From: Chromatiales bacterium | GTDB taxonomy: Bacteria > Pseudomonadota > Gammaproteobacteria > JAJPIJ01 | Assembly: GCA_052388435.1 (NCBI GenBank) | Contig: JBQTIC010000054.1 | Span: forward strand, 2,739-66,738 | DNA: 64,000 bases | Reading direction: 5' to 3' | Shown here: positions 47,646-63,844 of the stretch, piece after piece | Layout of the letters: every line of letters starts with the position of its first letter | Numbering within the stretch: the stretch's first letter is position 1 | Translations under genes and position numbers: made by a program | The notes under the pieces: model-generated | The model's database searches: none | What the model was told of the DNA's origin: nothing | What the model saw: the letters and a program-made list of their open reading frames with translations, nothing else

Positions 47646-47799
47646 GGAAGCTCTGAATAAGCCCATCCTGGACTTCTCAGAGCACGCAAAGCAAAAAGCG
47701 TGGTTTTTGCGTTGCTTCATCTTCAACGGCTTGCAGCCTTCGAAGATGGCGGCACATCCCTGTGCCGCAGGAACCTCTGACTTAATCAGAGGTTCCTTA
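47642..47799. repeat. 158-bp MITE-like repeat, copy B (between convergent phaC and glnE)
   Basis: See copy A (25459-25616). Begins on the phaC TAG stop and ends 2 nt after the glnE stop, so it fills the whole convergent intergenic gap. Contains the 11-bp-stem palindrome GGAACCTCTGA/TCAGAGGTTCC, a plausible bidirectional terminator. Confidence 0.65.
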
Positions 47800-50764: not shown

Positions 50765-51478
50765 TCAGCGCTCCGACTGTTTTTCGAGGTCCTGAAGACG
50801 TTTCATGAGGAAGCGCTGCTCTGCGGGGTCCGTGACCTTGCCGTCTTCCAGCAGTCCGCCGATGAGGATCTTCGCCGCCTCGATCTCTCCCATGTCCTCC
50901 AAGACAAAGATATTCATTTGACGCGCCCATTTCGGCACCTGCGGTCCCCTGGCGTGGGTGGCGAGCGCGTCGGCGTACTTGAGCGCGAGCGCCAGATCGC
51001 CGATGCGGTGCCTGGCTACGTACACCGCGTGGGCGAGCCACTGCCAACGGCCGTTGGGGTTCTTGAGGAATTCGCGGTAGACGAAATCGAGCATCTGCCG
51101 CTGCTTCGTCGGCACCGGCACTTCGCCGTAGAGGCGGGCGGCCGCGAGCAGTGGGTATTCCGTGCGCTCATCGAGACTGCCGACGCGCTCCAGCCACGCC
51201 ACAACGCGCCCATAGTCAAGGTCCCGGAAGGGAATGCTCAGGCCCGGCGGGTTATCAAAGGCCTGCAGCCACAGCATGAGCGCCTGCGCGAGGACGATGC
51301 GATCCCCCGCTGCCAGTACCTGCAACACAGGCAGCGCGGGAGGAGCGGGCAGCGCCTCGGCGTGCGCCTCGGGCGCCGGGCGAACGTGGTGCCAGGCGCC
51401 CTGCATTAGCAGGCTCGCCACGAGCAACATCAGCGCGGCGCGCGGCACGGCGTGGATGGGACGTTCCCTGGCTGACAT
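50765..51478 (-). CDS. hypothetical secreted/periplasmic protein
   Basis: 237 aa, N-terminal signal-like segment (AALMLLVASLLMQGA), helical remainder. No family recognised. Co-oriented with the upstream membrane protein and with glnE. Confidence 0.45.
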   Translation of the reverse strand: MSARERPIHAVPRAALMLLVASLLMQGAWHHVRPAPEAHAEALPAPPALPVLQVLAAGDRIVLAQALMLWLQAFDNPPGLSIPFRDLDYGRVVAWLERVGSLDERTEYPLLAAARLYGEVPVPTKQRQMLDFVYREFLKNPNGRWQWLAHAVYVARHRIGDLALALKYADALATHARGPQVPKWARQMNIFVLEDMGEIEAAKILIGGLLEDGKVTDPAEQRFLMKRLQDLEKQSER

Positions 51479-51480
51479 AT

Positions 51481-52251
51481 CTAGAAATTCTTCCGGTAAA
51501 GATCAAAGAGTCCGGCGCCGATCAGGAGAGCGAGGTAGATGATTGTCTGCCCGAGGATCGGCGCAAGCGCCGCGGGGTTGCCGGTCCCGTAAACGAGCCA
51601 CTCGCTGGGGGTGTAGCGATACAGTTCCGGCAGCAGGTAGGCCAGACCATCCACCATCGCTGCAATGATCTTCTGCGACCAGGCATTGGGGTCGATTAGA
51701 GGTCCGTGTCCCATCAATTGGATCGCGTCGATGACGCGCCCGAGTACGTAGAACGCGGCCACCGCGCTCAGGGCGGCAGTGACCTGCGAGAAGGTGAACA
51801 TGCACAACAGGCTGAGGGCGGCGATGATCAGCATTTCGCAGTACAGCGACAATGCCCAGAGCATCGCCTGGGCGGGCGGCGCGTAGAACGCGACGACAGC
51901 GCCGAAGGCCATGGCACCGATCAGCGCCACCAGGCCATAGCCCATGACCTTTCCGCAATAATACACATGGCGCGGCAGCGCGAGGGAGAGAACGAGATCC
52001 GCGCCCTTGTCCGCCAGTTCGCGCGCCACGCTGCTCGCCACAAACAACCCGATGAGGAACACGCCCGCCGCGCGCAGGAACGCAGCCAGGAACGCTATCC
52101 TGATCGCCCCGCTTTCGGTCACGGCGGCGGCGGCGGCAACCTCGGCGAGCAGGAACGCGATCACAACCGTTACCGCCAGCAGTACGAGCAGCCGTCCCCG
52201 GACCGCCTCCAGGGCGGTGAAGATCGCGATGGTTCCCGCCTTATGCCACAT
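51481..52251 (-). CDS. hypothetical polytopic membrane protein (ABC-2-permease-like topology, 6-7 TM)
   Basis: 256 aa, almost entirely hydrophobic helices. No ATPase partner in the window. 2-nt gap to the next gene. Confidence 0.45.
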   Translation of the reverse strand: MWHKAGTIAIFTALEAVRGRLLVLLAVTVVIAFLLAEVAAAAAVTESGAIRIAFLAAFLRAAGVFLIGLFVASSVARELADKGADLVLSLALPRHVYYCGKVMGYGLVALIGAMAFGAVVAFYAPPAQAMLWALSLYCEMLIIAALSLLCMFTFSQVTAALSAVAAFYVLGRVIDAIQLMGHGPLIDPNAWSQKIIAAMVDGLAYLLPELYRYTPSEWLVYGTGNPAALAPILGQTIIYLALLIGAGLFDLYRKNF

Positions 52252-52342: not shown

Positions 52343-54127
52343 ATGGACGCTGACATAACAAAGCCCGCGCGCATACCCGCCCGATCAGCGCAGATTGTCC
52401 GTGTGCTGATCGTAGTGTTCAGCAAGTACGAGAATGTCGTGCTTGCCACCATGCTGCTCCTGCTGCACCTGTCGCTGTGGTGGGACTTCGCCGGCCCGCT
52501 GTCCCGATCGCTCATGCTCGCCCACCTGGGGCTCTTCTTCCTCTGGCAGCCGATCTGGCGGGGCGATCAGCGCCTCGATATGCACAGCGCTGTCCTCTTC
52601 TTTCTCTGCACGATCGGGTTTGTGGTGCTGCTGAACGGCTGGCTGTTCGTATGCTGGCTCATCCTGCTCATCGGCCTGGTGGGCGGCCGCTCGTTAAGTC
52701 AGACGAGAGAGCGCTACGTCTACATGCTGACGCTGTTCTTCCTGACCTCCGAGCTGCTCATCGGCGCCACGCCACTGCTGTTTGACACGGGCGGTCTGCC
52801 CGGCACGATAAACGATCTCTTTCGTTACGGCCTGCTCGCGATCCCGCCGGTCGTTGCCTTTATACCAGCCATGGCTTCGGGCACGCGTACGCGCTTTGCC
52901 GTCGACCTTCTGCGCGGAGTGACCACTTCGATGATGGCGGCCATCGTGGCCATGGGCAGTCTGATAACGATGTACCGGTCACAGGCCGACTACTCGGAGG
53001 CATTGTTCTGGGCGTCCCTTGTGCTTGCAGGCTTCCTGTTCGCCATCAGCTGGCTTCTTACGCCGGGGACAGGGGTCAGTCGCCTCGCGGAGGTGTGGGA
53101 GCGCTCCCTGCTCAACATCGGCACGCCGTTCGAGGAGTGGTTGGCCGACCTTGCCAAAGTCGCCGAGCAGCACCTCACGCCCAAACAGTTCTTTGAAGCG
53201 GCCATGCTGGCGCTGGTCAGGCTGCCGTGGGTGCGCGGCGTGGCGTGGAGTGGATCTGACCTGGCCGGGAGGCACGGAGATCGCACGGTGCACTTCATAG
53301 ATCTCAACGCCGCCGGTGTCACCGTGCTCCTGTTCGTGCCGCGATCACCGGGCCCTGCGCTGCTGCTGCACGCCAAACTGCTGGTGCAGCTGCTGGGGCA
53401 TTTGTACACGGCCAAGCAGCGCGAGCAGGAGCTCGCCAAACAGGCGCACCTGCAAGCCATCCATGAGACCGGGGCACGCGTCACCCACGATATTAAGAAT
53501 CTGCTGCAGTCCCTCCAGGCCATCACCGCCGTGCTGACCGAGGCACCGCTGCCGATCGGCGCCTCGGAACGGCGCCGTTCGGCGCGCGTGTTTCAGCTGA
53601 TCGAGCGCCAGATGCCGCTCATCACGCAACGCCTGCAGCTCGCGCTGGACAAGCTCCAGTCCCCGGAGAAAACGGTCCAGCAGGAGAGACGGTTGCGCGA
53701 ATGGTGGGAGTCGCTCAAGGTCCGCAATCATGACACCGGTATCGGCTTTAAGGATAGCATTACAAGCAACCCGCTCATCCCGGGCGATCTCTTCGACAGC
53801 GTCGTCGAAAACCTGCTTGAGAATGCGCGCCACAAGCGGGAGCTCGAACGGGATATCGAGATCGGAGTGATGCTCACCAGCAACGGGGGGGGTCTTCGGC
53901 TCGAAGTGACCGACACGGGGAGTGCTGTTCCAGCGGCGGTCGCGGAGGGCCTGCTGAAGCAGCCGGTCAATTCTGACACCGGATTGGGCATCGGGCTTTA
54001 TCAGGCCGCGCGGCAGGCCGAGATGGTCGGCTACACGCTCAGCCTGCGGACCAATATCCCCGGCAAAGTCTGTTTTGAGCTCTCGGCCACCCAGCCGGCC
54101 AAGGGCGCAGACACGATGCTCGGTTGA
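52343..54127 (+). CDS. sensor histidine kinase with large polytopic N-terminal membrane domain (PrsK-like architecture), orphan
   Basis: ~250 aa with 7-8 TM helices, a GAF-like linker, H-box ARVTHDIKNLLQSLQ, and HATPase N/G boxes (LENARHK..., DTGSAV..., GLGIGLY). No response-regulator gene adjacent. Confidence 0.7.
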   Translation: MDADITKPARIPARSAQIVRVLIVVFSKYENVVLATMLLLLHLSLWWDFAGPLSRSLMLAHLGLFFLWQPIWRGDQRLDMHSAVLFFLCTIGFVVLLNGWLFVCWLILLIGLVGGRSLSQTRERYVYMLTLFFLTSELLIGATPLLFDTGGLPGTINDLFRYGLLAIPPVVAFIPAMASGTRTRFAVDLLRGVTTSMMAAIVAMGSLITMYRSQADYSEALFWASLVLAGFLFAISWLLTPGTGVSRLAEVWERSLLNIGTPFEEWLADLAKVAEQHLTPKQFFEAAMLALVRLPWVRGVAWSGSDLAGRHGDRTVHFIDLNAAGVTVLLFVPRSPGPALLLHAKLLVQLLGHLYTAKQREQELAKQAHLQAIHETGARVTHDIKNLLQSLQAITAVLTEAPLPIGASERRRSARVFQLIERQMPLITQRLQLALDKLQSPEKTVQQERRLREWWESLKVRNHDTGIGFKDSITSNPLIPGDLFDSVVENLLENARHKRELERDIEIGVMLTSNGGGLRLEVTDTGSAVPAAVAEGLLKQPVNSDTGLGIGLYQAARQAEMVGYTLSLRTNIPGKVCFELSATQPAKGADTMLG

Positions 54128-54366: not shown

Positions 54367-55152
54367 TCAAGGTAGGCGCCCTGCCATCACCATTCGGTTC
54401 TTGAGAACGTTCGGCGAGATCCATGTCACGAGGTCGTCGAATTCCAGCGTGTCGTCCCGGCTGAAGCTCTTGGAGACAAACACCGCATCTGGATCCTCAT
54501 TTTCCTGTTCATGGCTGGAGAGAGTGCCGCCGATTGCCAGCGCAGCGTCATTGTGATTGCTGCCGCGCGAGAAAATCAACGCGGGCACTTGGTTAACCAC
54601 TGTCGCGCCGCCCGCAGCATCCAGAACCGTTATGTCACCGACAGAGCAAAGCTCGAATGCCACCGTGGCTGTTGCTGTACCGCAAGGAGCGGTGTTTGTT
54701 CCGGCCGCAAAGAGCGGCGTAACTCTGTAACGAAAGAAGCCGCGATAACCAGCCGCACCTCCCCATTCGTCTCGCTGCCCAACATTCAGGTCAACCCACG
54801 GCAGGTTTCCCGAAGCGGCCACGCAAACTGGCGGGGTTCCAGTTCGATCCTCCGTCCCATCGTCACCGACGGAATCCGGACAGGGAAGTCGCCCATTTGC
54901 AACGGCGAACCCGACCAGCGCTTCCTTGATGTTCTCCAGTTGACCCTGTGTCCTTTGCCGCTCCTGCGATTCGGTGCGAGTGCTCAACGGGCCAAGCAGG
55001 CCCGCGAGCAGCAAAGCAATGACCAGAAGAACGATGGCGAGCTCGACGAGAGTGAAGCCCCGCGAGGCCGAACGCGCACGCAAGCCTCGTTCGCAACTCC
55101 AGGCAACCCCACATGGTGCGCTCACCGGCGAACGGTTACGGCTGGCGCGCAA
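54367..55152 (-). CDS. type IV pilin-like / pseudopilin protein with prepilin cleavage-methylation motif
   Basis: ...LRARSASRG|FTLVELAIVLLVIALLLAGLLGPL is the canonical class III signal (G-1, F+1, E+5, hydrophobic helix). The ORF starts with TTG at 55152 (GAGGT RBS at 8 nt), giving an unusually long 32-aa leader. The alternative TTG at 55083 gives a typical 9-aa leader MRARSASRG. Mature protein has 4 Cys. Confidence 0.75.
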   Translation of the reverse strand: MRASRNRSPVSAPCGVAWSCERGLRARSASRGFTLVELAIVLLVIALLLAGLLGPLSTRTESQERQRTQGQLENIKEALVGFAVANGRLPCPDSVGDDGTEDRTGTPPVCVAASGNLPWVDLNVGQRDEWGGAAGYRGFFRYRVTPLFAAGTNTAPCGTATATVAFELCSVGDITVLDAAGGATVVNQVPALIFSRGSNHNDAALAIGGTLSSHEQENEDPDAVFVSKSFSRDDTLEFDDLVTWISPNVLKNRMVMAGRLP

Positions 55153-58100
55153 CGATTCGCACCTCGTCGTTGAATGTGTTCGTCACAGGCGGAAATGTGC
55201 CGCGCTCATACTCGCACGGGGCCCCCGGACAGGGAGCCGGCGGAGAAAATGGAGGCCCGATAACGGGAAGATCATTCTGGCCTTCAAAGTAGGCTCCCGA
55301 GACACCTGTCGTGCGATCCTGTGTTCCTACTGGGGGGCCGGCGGCGATCAGGAGGGCGCGGATCCTGTCATTGTTGGTCGCCAGGTCGGCGCCATCCCTG
55401 AGCACCAGGCAGTCCGTCCCGATGGTGCAGGATCCGGTTGAGCCGCTGGTCGGAACCTCCTGAGGAGACGCCGCCGCATAGATGAGTTGATGCCAGTTGT
55501 TGCGCACGAACCAAGGCGGCAGCTCGTGATAGATCCTGTACCTGTCGTTGGCGGCGAACGTGATGGAGCCGCCCGGCACATTCTTCACCGTTACCTGACT
55601 GGCTGGCCCGACGGACTCGACGCGGCCCTTCGAGCAACCGACCCCAAGCTTTTCGACCCAATCGCCGGGCCGCACTCCCAATTGAACGAAGTCTCTAGTG
55701 CTGTCGATAAGCTCCAATCCGGTTGCTCCAACCGCCGTCACGGCTCCGTCAAGCGGTGCAAAATCCATATGGATGTTGCCGGTACTCACGAAACCGCTGG
55801 TGCCCGCGGGTATGGACAGCGTCGCATTCCCAAGTTGCGTCCCGGCCACATCCACATCGGTAATCGTGACCGGAGGAATCGCCGGCATGGCTGGCGGTGG
55901 CTGCTCTGGCAGCGGTGCAAAAGCTGCTGGCGAACCGATTACGACGTCTCTCACTTTTGTGCCGGCCGAGTTGGCGAAGCTCACGGTGCCATTGTGCATA
56001 GGCCGGAAGGCATATTGCCGGGTCTCGATCAAACCGCTGCGTATGAGGTACTCATCGCCCGCGTTGAATGAATTGGACGCCCCGCCTGTTAGCGCAATGA
56101 CGGTAATCTGATTCGTGCCCACCGTTGCGACTCTCCCAATTGAACCGTCATCGAGGTTCCGAACAACATCGCCAGCGCGCACGCTGAGTGCCACAAAATC
56201 CTGACTGCTGTCCATCAGCGTCAGTCCGGCGCTGCCAGCGGTGGCGGCATTGGTAAGCTGATACTGCTGGCCTGCCACAAATGTAACGCCGCTCAGCAGG
56301 TCGACGATCAGGTGGCTGGGAGTCGGCAGACCGACGGTCTGGATCACACCCTTCAAGCCAGTGCTCAGGTTCTCGACATAGTCACCGGCATTGACCCCCA
56401 GCGCCAGGAAATCGACATTGGTGTCCTCGAGCAGCGGTCCGAGACTCCCAAGGGTCGCTGTGCCCGGCGGCGGCAATGGAAGTTCCCGGGTGGCGATACG
56501 GAGCCTGTAGCCGTCGTTTGCTGCAAAGGTAAGGCCAGATACTGTCAGAGTGGTAGGAGAAGTGACCGCGGTGACGAATCCGCTGATAACGCTAGTCTGG
56601 TTTTCCACTACATCACCGGGGTTCACTCCAAGCGCATTAAAGTCAGCCTCCGCATCCATCAGCGTCGTGCCAGCGCTGCCGGCAGTGGCCGTACGCGTAA
56701 AGTACGGCTCCGCAGCGGTACCCGAACAGTCCACGCTGTCCGTCGCAGTCTGCGCCAAGGGACATTGGCCGGCAGTCGGGAAGTTCGCCGGATAGTCCAT
56801 GGACCACAAGCAGATTCCATTCGCTGACAGGACCGGGACCGGGTCCCGCGTGGGAGGCACGGCCACAGAGTCCAATAAGGGACGAGGCAAGGTCTTCTGT
56901 ATCGTCGCCCGCAGCCCCGGCACGTAATTGGCGACGGCTGTTACAACGGGAGGCGGCAATGCGGGCAGGAAGGCGGCGGTGACGACCGCGCCGTTTGCCT
57001 CCCTGATGTCCCAGTCAAGCGTGAAGCCCGTTCGAAACGCCTCGCCCGCCACGCCTGCGGGAGGAGGCAGCTGAACCATGGCATGGTATGGCAGATGTCC
57101 GTCGCGCGCAGTGCCTGACAGAATGTCACCGTTGTTGCGCGGGATCTGATAGGCGTCTCCCGCATCGAAGTCGTTCTCGGCGCCGTCGCGTAATGCTGCC
57201 ACCGTTAACGTGGTTGCGGCGACAGCGGTGATCACGCCCTTGGAGCCGTCCGTTACATTCTGAACGATGTCGTCAACGCGAACGCCCAACGTGACGAAAT
57301 CCTTGGTCGGGTCTTGCAGTTGAGTGATGCTGCTCGCGGCCGCCGTGCCAGCGATCATTGGTGCGGCCATGGTCGCCGCGCGGGGAGCGGCGAAAGGACT
57401 GGACCAGGGATACCGCCCATCGTCGGGTGTCGATGGTGTTAGATTTTCAGCAACCTCACGGTACTGGCTTACGGAATTTGCCGCCTCCCCGAGGACGCGT
57501 TTTTCCATCTCGCCCATGAAGTCGCGGCGGCTAATGACCAGCACCTGATCGTTGAAGTCGCCCGCGCCGCTGGTAACAAAGTCGGGGTCAGGGTCACTGT
57601 TTTCGCCTTCGAGGTAATGAGAGACGACATTACTTGGTCTCAACTGATCGTTGAAGCTGGGTCCGGGCGCCAGTAGCACGGCAACAATATCGCCGCTTCC
57701 GTCAATAGTCAGTTGACCCGGAGTCTCGCTGTTCAAGGGAAAGGTCTTCGGATTGTTCCGGAAGTTGCCCGACAGCGCATACCACAGCCTCTCGCCGCTA
57801 CTGTCGCGCACATCGTGCAGCCCCAGAAACTCCCAAGGCAGCCTTCCTACGCGAACTGTTTCAGCAAGAGTTCCGCAGGGCGGATTCGGCGATCCGTCAT
57901 TATCCGTGTCCGGACATGGCAGAAAGCCCGGTCCTGCGAGAAAGTCCGTTGTTGCTGGATTGTCAGGATAGGAAGCCGCGTAGCCGATCAGCGCCTCTCT
58001 GGCGGCTTCCAATGCGGCGGCCGACCGTTCCCTGCGGTACCCCTCACTGGCGGCCGCGTTCAACTGGGTCAGCAGCAAGGAAGAGCTTGCCACCACCAGA

Positions 58101-58255
58101 ATCAGCACTATGAGTATGAGTACCACGCCCTGCTGCCGATGCGGCCCATTGACCGACACGGTCGGCGCCAAGGTCACGGACGGGGGAAGGCATACGTCAC
58201 CCGATCTACCACCGCCTTTTGAAGGCGACTTCTTACCGGGACTGCTGATAGCCAT
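55136..58255 (-). CDS. giant (1039 aa) signal-anchored repeat protein of the pilus cluster (candidate PilY1/MshQ-like tip or assembly factor)
   Basis: ATG 58255. Single N-terminal hydrophobic segment (QQGVVLILIVLILVVASSSLLL) without prepilin motif. Five tandem ~65-aa repeats (aa ~307-372, 523-586, 602-666, 669-738, 842-909; nt ~55531-57337) with core L-x-D-x(3-5)-DF-x(2)-LGV-x(2)-GD-x-V-x-N...G-x-V...[LI]TV...[AN][AG][DQ]-x-Y-x-[IL]. Cys-containing N-terminal globular region (FLPCPDTDNDGSPNPPCG), Pro-rich linkers. Confidence 0.6.
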   Translation of the reverse strand: MAISSPGKKSPSKGGGRSGDVCLPPSVTLAPTVSVNGPHRQQGVVLILIVLILVVASSSLLLTQLNAAASEGYRRERSAAALEAAREALIGYAASYPDNPATTDFLAGPGFLPCPDTDNDGSPNPPCGTLAETVRVGRLPWEFLGLHDVRDSSGERLWYALSGNFRNNPKTFPLNSETPGQLTIDGSGDIVAVLLAPGPSFNDQLRPSNVVSHYLEGENSDPDPDFVTSGAGDFNDQVLVISRRDFMGEMEKRVLGEAANSVSQYREVAENLTPSTPDDGRYPWSSPFAAPRAATMAAPMIAGTAAASSITQLQDPTKDFVTLGVRVDDIVQNVTDGSKGVITAVAATTLTVAALRDGAENDFDAGDAYQIPRNNGDILSGTARDGHLPYHAMVQLPPPAGVAGEAFRTGFTLDWDIREANGAVVTAAFLPALPPPVVTAVANYVPGLRATIQKTLPRPLLDSVAVPPTRDPVPVLSANGICLWSMDYPANFPTAGQCPLAQTATDSVDCSGTAAEPYFTRTATAGSAGTTLMDAEADFNALGVNPGDVVENQTSVISGFVTAVTSPTTLTVSGLTFAANDGYRLRIATRELPLPPPGTATLGSLGPLLEDTNVDFLALGVNAGDYVENLSTGLKGVIQTVGLPTPSHLIVDLLSGVTFVAGQQYQLTNAATAGSAGLTLMDSSQDFVALSVRAGDVVRNLDDGSIGRVATVGTNQITVIALTGGASNSFNAGDEYLIRSGLIETRQYAFRPMHNGTVSFANSAGTKVRDVVIGSPAAFAPLPEQPPPAMPAIPPVTITDVDVAGTQLGNATLSIPAGTSGFVSTGNIHMDFAPLDGAVTAVGATGLELIDSTRDFVQLGVRPGDWVEKLGVGCSKGRVESVGPASQVTVKNVPGGSITFAANDRYRIYHELPPWFVRNNWHQLIYAAASPQEVPTSGSTGSCTIGTDCLVLRDGADLATNNDRIRALLIAAGPPVGTQDRTTGVSGAYFEGQNDLPVIGPPFSPPAPCPGAPCEYERGTFPPVTNTFNDEVRIVARQP

Positions 58256-58706
58256 CGACGATGGTGTTGGTGGCGGGGTCGTAGGTCTGGCCGGGCTTGA
58301 GCCGCACGTTGGGCAGATGCTCCGGGGTGTCGATGGGCACGGCTACGCTGCGCGGCCGATCGATGCGGATATGCTCATCGCCGAAGTCGCCCTCGTAAGT
58401 ATTCTGGCCGTTGACCCAGACCGTGCCGTCGCCTCGCGAGCGCAGCACCACTCCGTTGACGGTGATGGGCGGCACCTGCGGGGGCGGAAGGACTTCTTCG
58501 GGCGGCGGCGGCTCGACGACGGTTACGGGAGAGGGTTGCACGGGGGGCGCAGGCGGCCTCGGCGGCGCGGCGCGCAGGCGCTCGAGCATCTCCCGTTCCT
58601 CCGGTGTCATGAACAGCCGTCCCAGTTCCTGCGCCTGCATGGACGCCGTGGCTAGGCTCAGGAACAAGCCGATGGCGACGGTGGTTGCGCTTACATGGCG
58701 TTTCAT
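58233..58706 (-). CDS. PilP/MshK-like periplasmic assembly protein (signal peptide, Pro-rich linker, C-terminal beta-domain)
   Basis: Start set at ATG 58706 (MKRHVSATTVAIGLFLSLATASMQAQE = signal peptide). Then PPRPPAPPVQPSPVTVVEPPPPEEVLPPPQVPP linker, then ~60-aa beta-rich domain (ITVNGVVLRSRGDGTVWVNG...). Position after a PilO-like gene. ORF-track 5' extension to 58865 overlaps the upstream gene. Confidence 0.5.
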   Translation of the reverse strand: MKRHVSATTVAIGLFLSLATASMQAQELGRLFMTPEEREMLERLRAAPPRPPAPPVQPSPVTVVEPPPPEEVLPPPQVPPITVNGVVLRSRGDGTVWVNGQNTYEGDFGDEHIRIDRPRSVAVPIDTPEHLPNVRLKPGQTYDPATNTIVDGYQQSR

Positions 58707-58713
58707 GGCGGCC

Positions 58714-59340
58714 CTACCTGAGCACCAGGCTCTTGTCAGGCAGGTTGACCGTGTACCATTCCAGCTCGCACCCCGCGCTGATGTTCTGGGCCTTGGGGTT
58801 CGGCTCAATCGCGCCCTGCTTGCGGGTGAAAGTGCAACGGGAGATGCTGTACAGCCCGGCGGCATGGCGATTCAGTTCATCGAGCAGGGTGGCGAAGTCG
58901 TATTCGTGCAGCAGACCGAGGTCGAGCCGCATCCTGCTTTCGTAGACCTGGAAATGGCCGGTGTTGGTGCCTACCAGATACGGCGGGTTGGCCGCCTCCT
59001 GGGCGTTGATCTGGTAGCGCAACTCTGGCAACTTTATCGATGCACCGGCCCGGCGCAACGTCTCCAGCCAATTCAAGCGATTCTCCTCGCCGATCACGCC
59101 TCTGTTGTAAAGGTCGATAAACCGCGGGTATTGTTCGCGGATGATGCGGTCTTCATCATCGACAGCCAGATAGCGCTGGCTCGTGTCCTTAAACTGCGCG
59201 TGGTTGCGCTGGTAAGCCGCCTCCTCCTTCGTCTTGAAGTAGTGGCTGTACCACATCATCGCGGCGCTCACCACGACGCAGACCACCAGCGCGATAAAGG
59301 CGTCGCTGAGGAAGCGGAAATCGAGATCAAGCTTTTTCAT
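58714..59340 (-). CDS. PilO/GspM/MshJ-like bitopic inner-membrane pilus assembly protein
   Basis: 208 aa, short cytoplasmic N-terminus, one TM (FIALVVCVVVSAAMMWY), then coiled-coil plus periplasmic domain. Operon position after the PilMN-like gene. Confidence 0.5.
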   Translation of the reverse strand: MKKLDLDFRFLSDAFIALVVCVVVSAAMMWYSHYFKTKEEAAYQRNHAQFKDTSQRYLAVDDEDRIIREQYPRFIDLYNRGVIGEENRLNWLETLRRAGASIKLPELRYQINAQEAANPPYLVGTNTGHFQVYESRMRLDLGLLHEYDFATLLDELNRHAAGLYSISRCTFTRKQGAIEPNPKAQNISAGCELEWYTVNLPDKSLVLR

Positions 59341-60961
59341 CGGCTATTCCCATCACCAGCCGCACGAGAAAATCAGCCCTCTCGCCCGTCACCGGCGCGT
59401 CGGACGCGCCCCGCAGATTCGCGCTGGAGCTGACATCAAGCGGCTGCCGGATCACCTCTACCCGGTACACGTTTTCCTGGTTCCTCAATGCTTCCTCGAA
59501 GCGATTGACTGTCGCGATGGCGCCGCGGTAGTTGCCGTCGAAGGGCTCGATGTGTCCCTGCACCTCGGCAACGTGATAATAGAGGTACGACTTGGGAGGT
59601 TCGCTCTGCAACACGCCAGGATCGGCGGGACCGCGCGTTGCCTGCTCCGCGCCGGCGGTGGTTTCCGCGGCGTCGAGCTGCGCGTTGGGATCCGGGCTGG
59701 CAATCCACTCGATCCTGTCGAGCTCCACCGTCTGGAAGCCCCCCAGTGCGAGGCTCACTGTGCGCATCATTTCGATCGGCCTGGCCCTGTGACGCGCTAG
59801 CGCGTCAACAATGTCCACTGCCGACTTGATGTCGCGGGGCTCGACGGCGGTCGGCGGCAGACGTTTGCGGGCGATCTCATAACGTGCCTGGTAGTACGCC
59901 GCCTTCTGCTGCGAGTCGAAGGCCTGATGCCGCAGCGACACGCCCTCGATGAAGTTGAAGCCGCTCCAGACCGAGCCGCCCAGCAGCAGCAGCGCCGCCG
60001 CGGCCATCATCCCGACCCGCGTCTTGAAAAGCCGGTAGTAGCGGGTCTGATGCTTGGGCGCGTATTGGTTGACCGGCTTCTCATCGAGCAGCAGGTGCGC
60101 AAAAAGCACGTCGCTGTATGGCGTCGTCAGTGCGCCGCTGATCCCCAGGCGCCTGCCGACCTCGGCGACATTCACCAGATGGAAACGCACCTGCTCGACC
60201 GTTCGCGTCTGGTGCTTGAGTTCGCCGAGCAGATCGCCACCGGTGACGACGAAGATGTCGAGCGGCGCGTCGCGGTTCAGCAGCCGCAGGCTGACGAGAT
60301 AGCGCCGGAATTTATCGAGCTCGCCCAGCACGTGCGGCGCGTAAGGCACCGAGCCGTAACGCGGCATCTTCGCCAGACGGCTCACCTTCAACTCCTGGTC
60401 ACGGAAGAAGGTCTGCCTGAGGCCGCTTGCGCCGTGCAGCGTCACCAGCAGCAGATTCGACGACTTAGTGCCCAGCTTGTCGAGCAGCAGCTCACTGATG
60501 ACTGGCAGCGAGTAGATGCCGGTGACAGGCACCTTGTTGTCGCTGAACAGGCGGATGAGCGGGTCGAGCTGATCCGGGTTGGTGAGTGCCGTCAGCAGCA
60601 GACGGTCGTCTTTGCGCCCCTCGACCTCGCGGCCCTGAACCTGCGCATACTGGTAAGGTGTGTTACGGAACAACCGCAACAGCTTGCGCTGAATGATCGC
60701 GCCGCGGTCGCGACCAAAGACGTGCGGAATGGTGTCCTGGCGGTATTCCTCTTCGACAACGTCGACGACGAGATAGACGGGGACGTTGGGCGATTCCTCC
60801 AGGTAATGCGCGAACTGCCCGAACCCCACATCGGTGGCCTCAAAAAGAAACCCGTCCGCGAGTCCGCCGCTGCGCCAGTGATAAACGGCGATCTTGTCGC
60901 CAGTGATATAAATGGCGCGGCGATCGAAGAGATCAAACCTTGATCTTAGAGATGAGATCAT
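59327..60961 (-). CDS. PilM-PilN fusion-like (MshI/GspL-type) assembly protein
   Basis: 544 aa: ~315-aa cytoplasmic domain, single TM (VGMMAAAALLLLGGSVWSGF), ~200-aa periplasmic domain. ATG 60961 overlaps the 3' end of the platform gene by 29 nt. Confidence 0.5.
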   Translation of the reverse strand: MISSLRSRFDLFDRRAIYITGDKIAVYHWRSGGLADGFLFEATDVGFGQFAHYLEESPNVPVYLVVDVVEEEYRQDTIPHVFGRDRGAIIQRKLLRLFRNTPYQYAQVQGREVEGRKDDRLLLTALTNPDQLDPLIRLFSDNKVPVTGIYSLPVISELLLDKLGTKSSNLLLVTLHGASGLRQTFFRDQELKVSRLAKMPRYGSVPYAPHVLGELDKFRRYLVSLRLLNRDAPLDIFVVTGGDLLGELKHQTRTVEQVRFHLVNVAEVGRRLGISGALTTPYSDVLFAHLLLDEKPVNQYAPKHQTRYYRLFKTRVGMMAAAALLLLGGSVWSGFNFIEGVSLRHQAFDSQQKAAYYQARYEIARKRLPPTAVEPRDIKSAVDIVDALARHRARPIEMMRTVSLALGGFQTVELDRIEWIASPDPNAQLDAAETTAGAEQATRGPADPGVLQSEPPKSYLYYHVAEVQGHIEPFDGNYRGAIATVNRFEEALRNQENVYRVEVIRQPLDVSSSANLRGASDAPVTGERADFLVRLVMGIADEKA

Positions 60962-62138
60962 AGATGGGTCCCAACACCGATAGCATCACCCACATCAGCA
61001 GCCCGCCGAGCAAGATGGTTATGCCCGGCCCGAGGATCTTCTGCAGCCGCTCCACGGACTCCTTGACGTCGCGGGTGTAAAAATACCCCACGTTGGCCAG
61101 CGCCGTCTCTAGTGAGCCGGTATTCTCGCCGACGCGCAGCATGCGCAGGACCAGCGGCGGAAAGAGCTCCGACTCTCCGAAGCTCGCGGCGATACCCGAC
61201 CCGTCGCCGATTCTGCGGCCCGCCGCCAGCACCGCCTCCTCGACGGCCTTGTTGTCCACCACGTCGGCGCTCAGACGAATACTGTCTAGCACGGTAATGC
61301 CGGAAGCGTACATCAGGGCAAAGTTGTTCGTGAAACGCGTCAAAATAAGTTTCTTGAGTATCGGCCCAATGACCGGCCAGCGCAGTTTCCAAGCGTCCCA
61401 GTTGCGACGGAATACCGGACTGACCTGCGCGCCGACCTTGATGGCCACGGCAGCCACAACCGGCGCCAGGAGAAAAAGGTACCAGTACTCCTGGAAGGCG
61501 CCCGACACCGTGGTGAGCAGCTTGGTGTGCCAGGGCAGCTCCCCGCCCATGGTCTTGACGAACTTGAGCAGCTCCGGCACGACATTGACCATCAGAACAA
61601 AGACCGCGATCGTTACGACCACGAGCACGATGCTGGGATAAATAAGCAAGGTCTTGACGTGGGACGCCTGCTCGTCCTGCCATTTCAGGTTCTCCGCGAT
61701 CTGGCGCAGGACCTCCGGGAGCTGACCGGCCTCCTCGCCGGCGCGGATCAGGTTCACCATCGTGTCCCCGAACACGTACGGGAAGTCGGCCATCGATTGC
61801 GAGAGGTTCTTGCCGCCCTGGATGGTTTCGATCATGACCGCAATGACGTCACGCAGTCGCGGGTTCTCCATGGTGTCGCGCAGATCGGCCAGGCCCTCCA
61901 GCATCGGCACGCCGGCGCGCAGGAGCTGCTCCATGTGAAAGCAGAAGGTGATCAGATCGACCCGGCGGATGGTGCGGCCGCCGGCGGCGCGGCTGCGGCC
62001 CCTGATTTGCCGGTAGCTGATGAGATCGAGACCCATGCGGCTCAGGCGCGACTCCAGATCGCCGACGTTGACGGCATCCAGTCGGCTGCGCTTGACGGTG
62101 CCGTCACGAGCTATCGCTTTGTAGCGATACACCTCCAT
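60933..62138 (-). CDS. type II secretion / type IV pilus platform protein (GspF/PilC/MshG family)
   Basis: 401 aa, duplicated T2SSF domain architecture, 3 TM, conserved ...LLRAGVPMLEGL... and ...GESELFPPLVLRMLRVGENTGSLETAL... segments. Confidence 0.85.
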   Translation of the reverse strand: MEVYRYKAIARDGTVKRSRLDAVNVGDLESRLSRMGLDLISYRQIRGRSRAAGGRTIRRVDLITFCFHMEQLLRAGVPMLEGLADLRDTMENPRLRDVIAVMIETIQGGKNLSQSMADFPYVFGDTMVNLIRAGEEAGQLPEVLRQIAENLKWQDEQASHVKTLLIYPSIVLVVVTIAVFVLMVNVVPELLKFVKTMGGELPWHTKLLTTVSGAFQEYWYLFLLAPVVAAVAIKVGAQVSPVFRRNWDAWKLRWPVIGPILKKLILTRFTNNFALMYASGITVLDSIRLSADVVDNKAVEEAVLAAGRRIGDGSGIAASFGESELFPPLVLRMLRVGENTGSLETALANVGYFYTRDVKESVERLQKILGPGITILLGGLLMWVMLSVLGPIYDLISKIKV

Positions 62139-63844
62139 CAGGCGATCCTTTCCGTGAGATCCACCACCCGCGACACCTCATCGATACTGGTTACGCCGTC
62201 CAGGACGCGTTTCGCCGCGGCGTCCGCAAGCGTGGTGAAGCCCTTGCCGATTACCGCTGTGCTCAGCTCCTTCAGCCTCGCGCCGGCGGCGATGAGCTGA
62301 TCCATATCGCGGTCGAACTTCAGCAGCTCCATCGCCGCCGTGCGTCCGCGATAGCCTTGGTTATCACAATGGATGCAGCCCTTGGCCCGGTAGATGAGCG
62401 GCGACGCCCCACCCTGGTTGATGCCGAGCACGCGGCGTTCCAGTTCGCTCGGCTCGTAGGCCTCCTTGCACTGGTTGCAGAGCTTGCGCACCAGCCGCTG
62501 CGCGATAATGCCGATGATGTTGCCAGACATGATGTCCGGGCGGATGCCTAGGTCGAGCAGACGCGGAACCGCCCCAAGGGCGCTGTTGGTGTGCAGGGTT
62601 GCGAATACCTGGTGGCCGGTCATAGCGGCGCGGAACGCCATGGACGCTGTCTCCTCGTCGCGGATCTCGCCGATGAGGATGATGTCAGGATCCTGCCGCA
62701 GGATCGCCCGCACGCCACTTGCAAAATCCAGCCGCACGGCCTCGTTGATGGAGGTCTGGCGGATCTGGCCCATCGGATATTCGACGGGATCCTCCAGTGT
62801 CATGATATTGACCGACTCCGTATTAAGATGGCTGAGCACCGAATAGAGGGAGGTCGTTTTGCCGCTTCCGGTCGGACCGGTCACCAGAATGATGCCCTCC
62901 GGACGCGCCACCATGAGCTTGAGAACGTTGAGCACTTCCTCTTCGAGGCCCAGTTGTTCCAACTCCACGAGGCCCTTCTGCCGGTCGAGGATACGCAGCA
63001 CGATGTTCTCGCCGTTCACTGTCGGCATGGTGGAGACGCGGAAGTCGATCTGGCGGCCGGAAAGCGACAGCGAGATGCGGCCGTCCTGCGGCGCGCGCGT
63101 TTCGGCGATATCCATGCCCGACATGACCTTTACACGCACCGCGATCGCCGACCAGTAGTTCCTGTGCAGGCTGCGGATCTGCCGCAACACGCCATCGATG
63201 CGGTAGCGGAACCGCAGGAACCCCTGCTCCGGCTCGAAGTGAATGTCGGAAGCGCTGCGCTTGACCGCGTCTGCCAACAGCGCGTTGACCAGCCGCACCA
63301 CGGGTTGGCTGTATTCGCCGCTATCGGCCTCGAGGCTCGCGTAGTCGATCTCGCCGGTCTCAATCTCCTGCAGGATCCCGTCGACGGACAGTTCAAAGCC
63401 ATAGAACTGATCGATGGCCTTCTCGATGTCGGCCTCGGCCGCAAGCAGCGGCACGACCTCCACATCCCCACCCAGCAGGGCGTTGATCTGATCGATGGTG
63501 ACGACGTTGAAAGTATCCGCCATCGCAACAGTCAGGCGATTGCGGTTCAGCTCGTAGGTCAGCGGCAGGATGCGGTGGCGGCGGGCGATATCCTTGGGGA
63601 TGAGGCGTACCGCCTCGCTGTCGACAACCACCTGGGTGAGGTCGACGCTCTGCTGACCGAGCGCGCCGCCCAGAACGTCGAGGATGATCGCCTCGGTGGC
63701 AAAACCGAGACGGACGAGGATCTTGCCTAGGTGTTCCTTGTCCTTCTTCTGCTCGGTGAGCGCAATGCGGATCTGGTCCTGGCTGACAACGCCCTTCTGC
63801 ACCAGCAACTCCCCAATGCGGAGCGGCTGTTTGGGGACATTCAC
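62138..63844 (-). CDS. GspE/PilB-family secretion ATPase with MshEN-type (c-di-GMP-binding) N-terminal domain
   Basis: 568 aa. N-terminus has two tandem MshEN-like half-motifs (RIGELLVQKGVVSQDQIRIALTEQ and HLGKILVRLGFATEAIILDVLGGALG). Then T2SSE N-domain, Walker A GPTGSGKTT, Asp box, Walker B ILIGEIRDEETA, His box, tetracysteine CNQC...CIHC. Confidence 0.85.
   Translation of the reverse strand: MNVPKQPLRIGELLVQKGVVSQDQIRIALTEQKKDKEHLGKILVRLGFATEAIILDVLGGALGQQSVDLTQVVVDSEAVRLIPKDIARRHRILPLTYELNRNRLTVAMADTFNVVTIDQINALLGGDVEVVPLLAAEADIEKAIDQFYGFELSVDGILQEIETGEIDYASLEADSGEYSQPVVRLVNALLADAVKRSASDIHFEPEQGFLRFRYRIDGVLRQIRSLHRNYWSAIAVRVKVMSGMDIAETRAPQDGRISLSLSGRQIDFRVSTMPTVNGENIVLRILDRQKGLVELEQLGLEEEVLNVLKLMVARPEGIILVTGPTGSGKTTSLYSVLSHLNTESVNIMTLEDPVEYPMGQIRQTSINEAVRLDFASGVRAILRQDPDIILIGEIRDEETASMAFRAAMTGHQVFATLHTNSALGAVPRLLDLGIRPDIMSGNIIGIIAQRLVRKLCNQCKEAYEPSELERRVLGINQGGASPLIYRAKGCIHCDNQGYRGRTAAMELLKFDRDMDQLIAAGARLKELSTAVIGKGFTTLADAAAKRVLDGVTSIDEVSRVVDLTERIA

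Follow-up and report, generated by a model that had tools for sequence, protein, structure and literature searches.

In the stretch of Chromatiales DNA studied here (the window, 64,000 nucleotides), a reading frame of more than a thousand codons lies between pilus-assembly genes and a prepilin gene. What part might so large a protein play in the pilus? The original prediction described it as a large pilus-associated protein and candidate adhesin, and a tip/adhesin role is still the best-supported reading. What has changed is the kind of protein. We consider it likely that the protein belongs to the cap class of minor pilins (GspK/PilK/PilX/MshP-like), as a giant and modular member, and that its place is in an MSHA-like type IV filament machine, probably controlled by c-di-GMP.

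The reading frame

The gene runs uninterrupted over 55136..58255 on the minus strand, with its stop codon at 55136-55138; the plus-strand frame at the same positions is broken by many stops. The reading frame and its length of 1039 aa (from ATG 58255) agree with the first description, to be amended by the minus strand and by a shorter form: the NCBI entry for the identical protein (P0001, from a Chromatiales bacterium MAG) starts at TTG 58171 and comprises 1011 aa. ATG 58255 overlaps the stop of the upstream gene, and TTG 58171, giving 1011 aa, is probably the true start.

At 63% G+C, both strands of the genome show numerous long ORFs that are spurious, and one might suspect an artefact in which frames were fused or the repeats described below resemble each other by chance. 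Same-length orthologues with 71-73% identity exist (P0002 and P0003), a sequence search gave about 120 relatives, and species-representative genomes contain at least 581 stretches related to the gene. AlphaFold2 modelled the whole protein with confidence (pLDDT 83.7, pTM 0.80), and the repeats match each other with E-values down to 1e-19. On these grounds a frame-fusion or chance origin is ruled out to near certainty. The giant pilin has no match in Pfam, NCBIfam or among PDB sequences; its family is widespread and unstudied. We divided the protein into nine domains in the order PIL-R-X1-R-R-R-X2-R-CD, where PIL is a pilin module, R a repeat, X1 and X2 are non-repeat domains and CD is the C-terminal domain.

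A pilin module at the N-terminus

The predicted pilin module spans aa 29-272 (57440..58171, minus strand) and consists of a leader, an alpha-1 helix, a beta-sheet head and a trailing helix. Its leader is short and basic and ends at the invariant Gly43, its alpha-1N is hydrophobic and lacks Glu5, and the alpha-1 helix is predicted to be 53 residues long. The head carries an LPCPDxxNDG...C motif and is followed by the trailing helix. A long N-terminal alpha-1 helix together with an antiparallel beta-sheet head, as predicted here, is characteristic of the pilin superfamily, and a hydrophilic leader up to a Gly followed by about 20 hydrophobic residues of alpha-1N is the layout of a class III signal peptide. 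The combination of Phe1 and Glu5, a further mark of the superfamily, is absent from the giant pilin.

Homology to the adjacent prepilin was found at two levels. In BLASTP, aa 70-242 aligned with the whole head of that prepilin (E 2e-8). In hhalign, the family of the N-terminal region aligned with the prepilin family at Prob 99.8% (E 2.9e-29, 198 columns), setting RQQG|VVLIL on ASRG|FTLVE and hence starting at the leader Gly. All 74 aligned family members have Gly(-1), preceded by R/K-Q-x and followed by the hydrophobic stretch. Position +1 is mostly Ala or Val, and none of 79 members has Glu at +5; in the neighbouring prepilin family, E5 is found in 94 of 115. In its pattern Q-x-G|(A/V)(A/V)L(L/I) the leader resembles XcpX and PilX. 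None of the curated pilin models N_methyl (PF07963), TIGR02532, PilX_N and T2SSK (Pfam, NCBIfam) matched the giant pilin or 59 relatives, and T2SSK and PilX_N did not appear even at E <= 10 when the N-terminal 357 aa were searched. Judged by this homology, which extends from the leader glycine to the last strand, a complete pilin module makes up the first ~245 residues and is a paralogue of the adjacent prepilin. The N-terminus had previously been taken for a plain signal-anchor without a prepilin leader and for a Cys-rich domain; the former gives way to a pilin-type leader and an alpha-1 helix without Glu5, and the latter does not fit the Cys count, which is 11 over the whole 1039 aa and two within the pilin head. 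The conserved Cys are paired.

Tip complexes are known to be capped by a subunit without Glu5, and filaments assemble from tip to base (reviewed in PMC10191384); the absence of Glu5 from the giant pilin family would thus follow the known exception for cap pilins.

The same module bears on the likeness to PilY1 or MshQ that had been suggested from gene position, i.e. on a non-pilin tip adhesin of PilY1/PilC or MshQ type that docks on minor pilins. A size of about 1000 aa and a place at the end of the assembly genes beside a pilin gene would suit such a protein, and so would the strand conserved at the very C-terminus, which PilY1 and MshQ also have (PMC13533445). However, a bona fide pilin module forms the N-terminus, no separate PilK/MshP-like acceptor pilin was found in the cluster, and the C-terminal beta-propeller of PilY1/PilC (Pfam Neisseria_PilC), with or without an N-terminal vWA domain, was not detected, nor was any other Pfam or NCBIfam domain. 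The check for propeller or vWA signatures (Pfam) that had been proposed for the giant pilin hence came out negative, and we consider a non-pilin adhesin very unlikely.

Five barrels, two family-specific domains and a C-terminal duplication

The five repeats and their quoted motif are borne out; their tandem arrangement is not. R1 (aa 305-378, 57122..57343), R2 (aa 524-593, 56477..56686), R3 (aa 601-672, 56240..56455), R4 (aa 672-748, 56012..56242) and R5 (aa 841-917, 55505..55735), all on the minus strand, follow a 1 + 3 + 1 layout in which only R2-R3-R4 form a contiguous block; R1 is set off from this block by a conserved non-repeat domain of 145 aa and R5 by one of 92 aa. Each repeat is about 70 aa long, and all ten pairs are significant in BLASTP (35-51% identity, E 9e-10 to 1e-19). 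Compared as DNA, R1-R5 show no similarity to one another, which indicates that the duplications are old. Repeat-bearing relatives have two to eight such modules per protein, inserted at three junctions of the core.

R1, R2, R3 and R5 are beta-barrel modules, and R4, modelled singly, gave a six-stranded beta-barrel with pLDDT 93. Of the two early guesses, a small beta-sandwich or an SH3-like module, the latter comes close to these small barrels. A fold search grouped the repeat with closed six-stranded barrels of the EF-Tu-domain-II/phage-accessory type, not with Ig-like folds. Its nearest structural neighbours are barrels that serve as accessory domains in the tailspike, hub and tip proteins of phages. 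The fold is also found in unrelated domains of a purely structural or housekeeping kind, such as EF-Tu domain II and the N-terminal barrel of F1/V1-ATPase. Curated models (Big, cadherin, FN3, PKD and SH3; Pfam) gave only sub-threshold noise, with DUF5666 at E 0.17, and no Pfam or NCBIfam family covers the repeat, as had been supposed. Its novelty goes no further than this: a repeat profile matched 2,984 cluster representatives, phage tail proteins among them, and its sequence relatives include a phage baseplate hub, a tail sheath, a Phage-tail_3 (tail-tip) protein and beta-helix surface proteins.

The conserved core beyond the pilin module is made up of X1, X2 and the C-terminal domain. X1 (aa 379-523, 56687..57121, minus strand) is a conserved non-repeat domain, mostly beta, with conserved Cys482 and Cys510; X2 (aa 749-840, 55736..56011, minus strand) is likewise conserved, non-repeat and beta. 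Both are kept in repeat-less relatives of about 600 aa. The C-terminal domain (aa 915-1039, 55139..55513, minus strand) has the conserved terminal strand FNDEVRIVARQP as its last element. It matched the N-domain of the giant pilin in hhalign (Prob 98.4%, E 5.7e-15) and also the prepilin family (Prob 95%, E 3e-8); by this profile comparison it is a duplicate of the second half of the pilin head. In 65 of 83 family members an invariant FND is followed by 6-10 residues up to the C-terminus; D1002 is invariant, and the segment after FND is modelled as a strand (E1003-1009).

The neighbouring machine

All neighbouring genes discussed here lie on the minus strand. The gene at 54367..55083 encodes a canonical prepilin (238 aa as annotated, G|FTLVELAIV; Pfam N_methyl; P0254 at 100% identity), which is probably the major pilin and is the one canonical prepilin that a motif scan found in the 64-kb window. 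On the other side, the product of 58233..58703 is a secreted protein, 156 aa long, whose signal peptide is of Sec type. Of the placement predicted for the giant pilin the prepilin neighbour thus holds, and the supposed PilP-like neighbour is this 156-aa protein with a weak T2SSB match only. Two further genes belong to the conserved module. One (58714..59340) encodes a bitopic membrane protein, 208 aa long, for which topology and position suggest a PilO/GspM/MshJ-like role; the other (59327..60961) encodes a protein of 544 aa with a single central transmembrane segment, which on the same two grounds may have a GspL/MshI-like role. They are followed by a GspF/PilC-type platform protein (60933..62138; Pfam T2SSF E 1.9e-47, with NCBIfam in agreement) and an extension ATPase of MshE type whose N-terminus carries the c-di-GMP-binding MshEN domain (62138..63844; Pfam, NCBIfam). 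The ATPase matched T2SSE (E 1e-129), MshEN PF05157 (E 2.3e-18) and NF053729 (57.6 bits against a cutoff of 38), so that the MshE ATPase with MshEN domain that defines an MSHA-type (T4e) system is present in the window.

In the window the operon comprises the ATPase, the platform protein and three assembly genes, and its gene order is kept in the orthologous loci L001, L003, L005 and L004. The window stops at the ATPase gene, and a secretin gene, a TPR gene after it and an AAA+ gene were seen in the orthologous loci only. An MshL-type secretin and an MshN-like TPR protein are further marks of MSHA-type (T4e) machines. The secretin of the orthologous loci has TIGR02519 MshL as its best match (245.8 bits in L001 and 256.8 in L003; cutoff 250.2). 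Some of these loci carry three or four more pilin-like genes of about 250 aa. Taken together, the sequences describe what appears to be an MSHA-like type IV filament machine, probably under c-di-GMP control.

The giant pilin might be a pilin-like, non-polymerising component of the inner membrane, anchored in the platform by its N-terminal helix, cleaved or uncleaved. A large beta-rich domain in the periplasm would then serve a T2SS-like machine as scaffold, gate or substrate adaptor, and the protein would never reach a tip. Its lack of Phe1 and Glu5 and of matches to curated pilin models would be compatible with this; ATPase and platform are about equally T2SS- and T4P-like (GspE 540 vs PilB 532 bits; GspF 280 bits), and neither a retraction ATPase nor further minor pilins were found in the cluster. 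On the other hand, the homology with the adjacent prepilin is full-length and includes the leader Gly, cap subunits typically lack Glu5 and still become part of the filament (PMC10191384), and the secretin of the orthologous loci is of MshL and not of GspD type. A length of about 1000 residues with modules common to phage receptor-binding organelles also suits an exposed better than a periplasmic role. Hence we regard an inner-membrane component as unlikely, if the least unlikely of the alternatives.

Slightly less probable still is a homotrimeric tip pilin in the style of T4b pili (CofB/TcpB-like), which as sole minor pilin would initiate assembly and present the barrels, without a single GspK-like cap that adds its strand in cis. 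The locus has one major prepilin and one large pilin, as TCP and CFA/III loci have a single minor pilin (PMC13533445), and the pilin module of CofB is also followed by beta-repeat and beta-sandwich domains (PMC8179133). However, ATPase and secretin are of MSHA and not of T4b type, and the additional pilin-like genes in some orthologous loci do not agree with a sole minor pilin. TcpB and CofB also retain Glu5, a residue never present in the giant pilin family.

A proposed cap pilin and tip adhesin in one chain

The best reading of the giant pilin is a cis fusion of a cap pilin (as MshP) and a tip adhesin (as MshQ or PilY1) in a single polypeptide. We propose that prepilin peptidase would cut the leader, which keeps the invariant -1 glycine of the peptidase site, and that the alpha-1 helix might then seed the filament. 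Without Glu5 the protein would be confined to the very top, so that the major pilin would assemble beneath it and the giant pilin would reach the tip of the pilus. Cap pilins depend on a terminal strand, whether supplied in cis or in trans, and in CpaL a large insert lies between sheet and strand (Ellison et al. 2026, PMC13533445). In the giant pilin the extreme C-terminal strand (FND and the 6-10 residues after it) might complete a pilin-type beta-sheet in cis. This would correspond to the ‘C-beta licensing’ step, for which PilY1 or MshQ act in trans and GspK and CpaL in cis. The barrels and X domains, about 750 residues, could then form an exposed tip organelle that mediates attachment; its probable target would be a polysaccharide or some other surface ligand.

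Some points count against the cap-pilin reading: the curated pilin models do not match, the barrel fold is common to purely structural domains, the secretin, TPR and AAA+ genes come from orthologous loci only, and GspI/J (MshD/O)-like partner pilins were not found in the cluster by the motif scan of the 64-kb window. As a consequence of the last point, the canonical I-J-K initiation complex could not be assembled from the window alone.

Comparison with known systems

With GspK, PilK, PilX and MshP the giant pilin has in common an N-terminus of pilin type that has Gly at -1 and lacks Glu5, the rank of largest pilin of its system, a predicted apical place and a conserved terminal beta-strand. 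Unlike these caps it is unmatched by Pfam T2SSK and PilX_N, has no alpha-domain in the sheet, continues with about 750 residues of beta domains after the pilin module, has the second half of its pilin head duplicated C-terminally and lacks GspI/J-type partners in its cluster.

Comparable in design are CpaL of the Caulobacter Tad pilus and ComZ of Thermus, which are PilK-like and in which a large insert separates the sheet of the pilin from the C-terminal strand (PMC13533445). All three have an N-terminal pilin-like domain, a large middle presumed to serve in adhesion or sensing and, at the extreme C-terminus, a conserved strand for which action in cis is proposed (PMC13533445), and none has a separate PilY1 in its system. 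The giant pilin differs in that it belongs to an MSHA-like filament and not to a Tad or competence T4aP system, has about twice the length of CpaL (~600 aa), has a different middle composed of a repeated beta-barrel module and two family-specific domains, and ends in a whole duplicated half-domain where CpaL and ComZ have a single strand.

MshQ of the V. cholerae MSHA locus is a large non-pilin protein encoded downstream of mshDOP, with curated domain signatures of its own. It is by these signatures that the giant pilin, with its pilin N-terminus and no Pfam or NCBIfam family, is set apart from it. MshQ, PilY1 and PilC resemble the giant pilin in size, operon position, presumed function as tip adhesin and conserved C-terminal strand, but they are non-pilins that dock in trans on PilK or MshP, whereas in the giant pilin the adhesin and pilin parts are joined in one chain.

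Modular pilins, in which a pilin module bears extra modules for display at the tip, are a widespread and diverse design (Raynaud et al. 2021, PMC8179133); examples are PilB (vWA) and PilC (lectin) of S. sanguinis, and CofB and TcpB of T4b pili (PMC8179133). By the definition used there, an N-terminal pilin module plus at least one non-pilin module, the giant pilin is one of them, although with 1011-1039 aa and nine domains it exceeds their 860-residue extreme (PMC8179133) and, unlike PilB of S. sanguinis, has neither Phe1 nor Glu5 and hence no canonical class III motif. Since its extra modules have no signature at all, an InterPro-based survey of that type would miss it. The structural kin of its repeats are accessory barrels found in the tailspikes and baseplate hubs of phages, in tip protein J, in capsid insertion domains and in GH110 galactosidases, where they are strung on a virion protein or an enzyme; here they are strung on a pilin. 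As such, the giant pilin represents a known design principle, that of the modular pilins, carried out with barrels that are common to phage tail proteins.

Reading frame and start codon

An open reading frame had been predicted at 55136..58255, and a frame of exactly this extent runs without interruption on the minus strand; a plus-strand reading of the same interval was ruled out by stop codons throughout the frame. The start codon of the encoded protein, which we call the giant pilin, is ambiguous (58171-58255, minus strand). Translation from ATG 58255, a codon that shares bases with the upstream gene's stop, gives 1039 aa with a 43-residue leader. The NCBI start for the identical protein P0001 from a Chromatiales bacterium MAG is TTG 58171, giving 1011 aa with 15 residues ahead of a conserved glycine. 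A leader of 15 residues is typical of pilins and more pilin-like than one of 43. Could the frame be an artefact, for example of frame fusion? This explanation is refuted by orthologues of the same length at 71-73% identity, by ~120 relatives, by at least 581 related stretches among species-representative genomes and by a confident full-length AlphaFold2 model (pLDDT 83.7, pTM 0.80).

Neither the full-length sequence nor its N-terminal, C-terminal or triple-repeat segments matched anything over noise in sequence searches of Pfam, NCBIfam and the PDB, and by sequence search the giant pilin is not a member of the curated pilin, T2SSK, PilX_N or PilY1 families. Among 59 relatives, Pfam models matched in isolated cases only: E1_FCCH in P0099 and Cys_rich_CPCC in two members. 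The giant pilin holds 11 Cys in total, so that its description as having a Cys-rich N-domain was overstated; the conserved Cys are paired, in keeping with an exported protein.

The N-terminus is a pilin module

The N-terminus had been taken for a plain signal anchor. Both BLASTP and profile-profile comparison identify it instead as a pilin, homologous to the canonical prepilin encoded directly downstream (54367-55083, minus strand). By BLASTP, aa 70-242 of the giant pilin align with the whole globular head of this prepilin (E 2e-8, 27% identity), and the two proteins have the motif LPCPDxxxDG...C in common. When the N-terminal region of the family was compared with 120 prepilin homologues, the profiles matched over 198 columns (Prob 99.8%, E 2.9e-29) in an alignment that begins at the leader and places RQQG|VVLILIV on ASRG|FTLVELAIV. 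A PDB phmmer search with the neighbouring prepilin gave weak matches, confined to the alpha-1 helix. We also observed that LPCPD-x(2-3)-DG...C, with a conserved Cys, lies at the start of the head in both the prepilin (54367-55083, minus strand) and the giant pilin (57440-58171, minus strand); the stretch resembles a disulfide or metal-binding loop particular to this clade of pilins.

The leader glycine is present in all 74 sequences of the giant-pilin family alignment, followed at +1 mostly by Ala or Val, and Glu at +5 occurs in none of 79 family sequences; the neighbouring prepilin family reads G|FTL(I/V/L)E, with Glu5 in 94 of 115. In the model a 53-residue N-terminal helix is followed by a sheet. 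Gly(-1) without Glu5 on a pilin-type N-terminus is the hallmark of a tip-complex cap subunit, and filament assembly runs from tip to base (PMC10191384). Rival explanations for such a protein are that it is a membrane-anchored, non-polymerising pilin-like component, or that it forms a homotrimeric tip in the style of CofB/TcpB. A non-pilin adhesin of the PilY1/MshQ type, to which the protein had been likened, is contradicted by the pilin module at the N-terminus, and as the check for a propeller was negative too, membership of PilY1/MshQ is ruled out.

Repeats and domain order

Five repeats had been described as tandem. There are indeed five (R1-R5, at aa 305-378, 524-593, 601-672, 672-748 and 841-917), but they are not tandem: the order is PIL-R1-X1-R2-R3-R4-X2-R5-CD, where PIL is the pilin module, CD the C-terminal domain, and X1 (145 aa) and X2 (92 aa) denote conserved beta domains outside the repeats. 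All 10 pairwise BLASTP comparisons of the repeats are significant (35-51% identity, E 9e-10 to 1e-19). At the DNA level R1-R5 have no similarity; hence the duplications are old, and recent duplication or slippage is ruled out.

The original prediction could not assign the repeat to a known family, which still holds, since no Pfam model covers it. Its fold is a closed barrel, which rules out a Big, cadherin or other Ig-like repeat, and there is no PilY1 propeller. Leading matches in the fold search were the phage VP1 capsid insertion domain, the siphophage hub 8gtc_P, the phi297 tailspike and tip protein J. Behind them came GH110 barrels, Pbp11 and PF0907; EF-Tu domain II and ATPase N-terminal barrels ranked next.

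Minimal relatives of ~600 aa, such as P0088, have the layout PIL-X1-X2-CD with zero repeats. Repeat-bearing relatives carry 2-8 barrels inserted at the junctions PIL|X1, X1|X2 and X2|CD, most commonly as PIL-R-R-R-X1-R-R-X2(R)-CD. Because repeat-less relatives exist and insertion occurs at three junctions, the barrels are accessory expansions of a conserved core. In the repeat-less, 641-aa relative P0099 the E1_FCCH match (aa 469-527, E 3.8e-7) falls where others carry X domains or barrels. E1_FCCH is the ubiquitin-E1 beta-barrel half-domain, and a remote relationship between its model and the barrel module is possible.

The barrel beyond pilins

A search of 1.84 billion cluster representatives with the repeat profile matched 2,984 proteins at E <= 1e-3 and 564 at E <= 1e-10, and pilin domains were absent in 52 of the 133 newly retrieved top matches. 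Among the carriers without pilin domains are a baseplate hub (Phage_phiJL001_Gp84_N + BR0599), a tail sheath and a Phage-tail_3 (J-like) protein, as well as NosD/beta-helix giants and Calx-beta and Big_5 surface proteins. The phage carriers P0183, P0189 and P0166, namely a baseplate hub, a sheath protein of the tail and a J-like protein of the tail tip, each have 4-6 inserted copies; most non-pilin carriers had no match in PHROGs. The phage link of the barrel is thus both structural and sequence-level. With no Pfam model and this number of profile matches, phage proteins included, the barrel is an unannotated, widespread surface or decoration module that is not unique to the giant pilin.

A duplicated half-domain at the C-terminus

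The last ~125 residues of the giant pilin are homologous to the second half of the pilin head, as seen with hhalign against its own N-domain (Prob 98.4%, E 5.7e-15) and against the prepilin family (Prob 95%, E 3e-8). Throughout the family D1002 is invariant and N1001 nearly so, and 65 of 83 members have 6-10 residues between FND and the C-terminus, in a segment predicted as a strand (E1003-1009). PilK-family cap pilins require a terminal beta-strand (Ellison et al., PNAS 2026; PMC13533445). According to that study it is given in trans by PilC/PilY1, with MshQ predicted to do likewise for the MSHA cap pilin MshP, or in cis, as in GspK and the ~600-aa CpaL; where a tip adhesin is lacking, the PilK homologue often carries a large insert between the sheet and the donor strand (PMC13533445). 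The giant pilin fits this last description in an extreme form, and its terminal strand may pair in cis with the pilin sheet.

Genomic setting

On the minus strand the cluster runs from an MshE-type ATPase (T2SSE + MshEN, with the c-di-GMP-binding motif over cutoff) through a platform protein of the GspF/PilC type, a 544-aa protein that has a single TM segment at its centre, a bitopic protein of 208 aa and a secreted one of 156 aa to the giant pilin and then the prepilin. A mechanical ORF of 210 aa at 58233-58865 (minus strand) is probably the 156-aa secreted protein (MKRHVSATTVAIGLFLSLATASMQAQE...), like the 156-aa call in the orthologous locus L001. This protein has a T2SSB match below threshold (E 0.047), and the three upstream assembly genes received no usable Pfam assignment at E <= 10; from topology and position we infer PilM/N/O/P- or MshI/J/K-like roles for them.

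Gene context was read from the orthologues P0002, P0004, P0034 and P0088. The same order is found in the orthologous loci L001, L003 and L005, where a secretin and a TPR protein come before it and, in L001, an AAA+ gene as well; L004 has the five-gene distal module alone. The secretins match MshL best (245.8 and 256.8 bits against a cutoff of 250.2). By gene order and these secretins, the filament machine is MSHA-like, without the mshB/C/D/O/P/Q set. The window holds one canonical prepilin, and some relatives' loci have 3 or 4 extra ~250-aa pilin-like genes. Four such genes follow the giant pilin in L003 (13015-17096) and L005 (12921-16102), with a weak N_methyl match in two of the four in L005 and only in the fourth in L003; the remaining ones may be divergent pilins. 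These weak matches and differing gene sets indicate that the pilin complement varies between genomes. Nearly all hosts belong to uncultured Gamma- and Betaproteobacteria.

A divergent sensor histidine kinase gene (52343-54127, plus strand) lies right after the prepilin gene, a position kept in L001, and its product is weakly similar in NCBIfam to PrsK, an XrtA/PEP-CTERM kinase (E 2.7e-10, far under cutoff); it may regulate the pilus cluster. Further on, 47797-50691 and 50765-52251 (both minus strand) correspond by synteny with L001 to two small membrane/ABC-2-like proteins and a GlnE-like adenylyltransferase, and by the same synteny the genes beyond the kinase are housekeeping genes outside the pilus cluster.

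Discussion

Current work on type IV filaments asks what starts them and how their tips gain functions, and a 2026 study showed that the tip complex is licensed by a terminal beta-strand, whether provided in cis or in trans (PMC13533445). The giant-pilin family offers a natural, extreme cis case: a pilin module, ~750 inserted residues and a duplicated half-domain ending in the invariant FND strand, in a system where there appears to be only one other pilin in the cluster. As a mechanism we propose that prepilin peptidase would cut after Gly43 and that the alpha-1 helix would then seed the filament at its apex. Completion of the pilin sheet in cis by the terminal strand would be the licensing step, after which the neighbouring pilin would polymerise beneath, powered by the c-di-GMP-responsive ATPase, and the barrel-rich body of ~750 residues might be displayed at the tip for attachment.

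A more far-reaching idea, which we regard as rather doubtful, is that the family represents a single-chain pilus tip complex in which a Glu5-less cap pilin, a mimic half-domain with a cis strand and a phage-exchanged barrel organelle together replace the MshD/O/P/Q (PilV/W/X/Y1) set. The second pilin-like half-domain would then mimic a neighbouring subunit and deliver the licensing C-terminal strand in cis, and the adhesive organelle would be built of a barrel exchanged with phage receptor-binding machinery. If true, this would be an unrecognised, widespread MSHA-like filament branch in uncultured Gamma- and Betaproteobacteria.

The family is widespread and invisible to signature-based annotation. 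Our analysis defines an unannotated beta-barrel module common to putative pilus tips and phage tail organelles, which hints at a common type of ligand or at module exchange. For the question of tip licensing, the giant pilin offers a clean, testable natural example that extends current models rather than overturning or challenging them. In function it resembles GspK, PilK or MshP joined to an adhesin of the PilY1/MshQ kind, with CpaL and ComZ as its closest functional likenesses. Conceptually it is one of the modular pilins (PMC8179133), longer than the 860-residue extreme noted in that survey, and it is set apart from known relatives by its duplicated pilin half-domain, its barrel module and its size.
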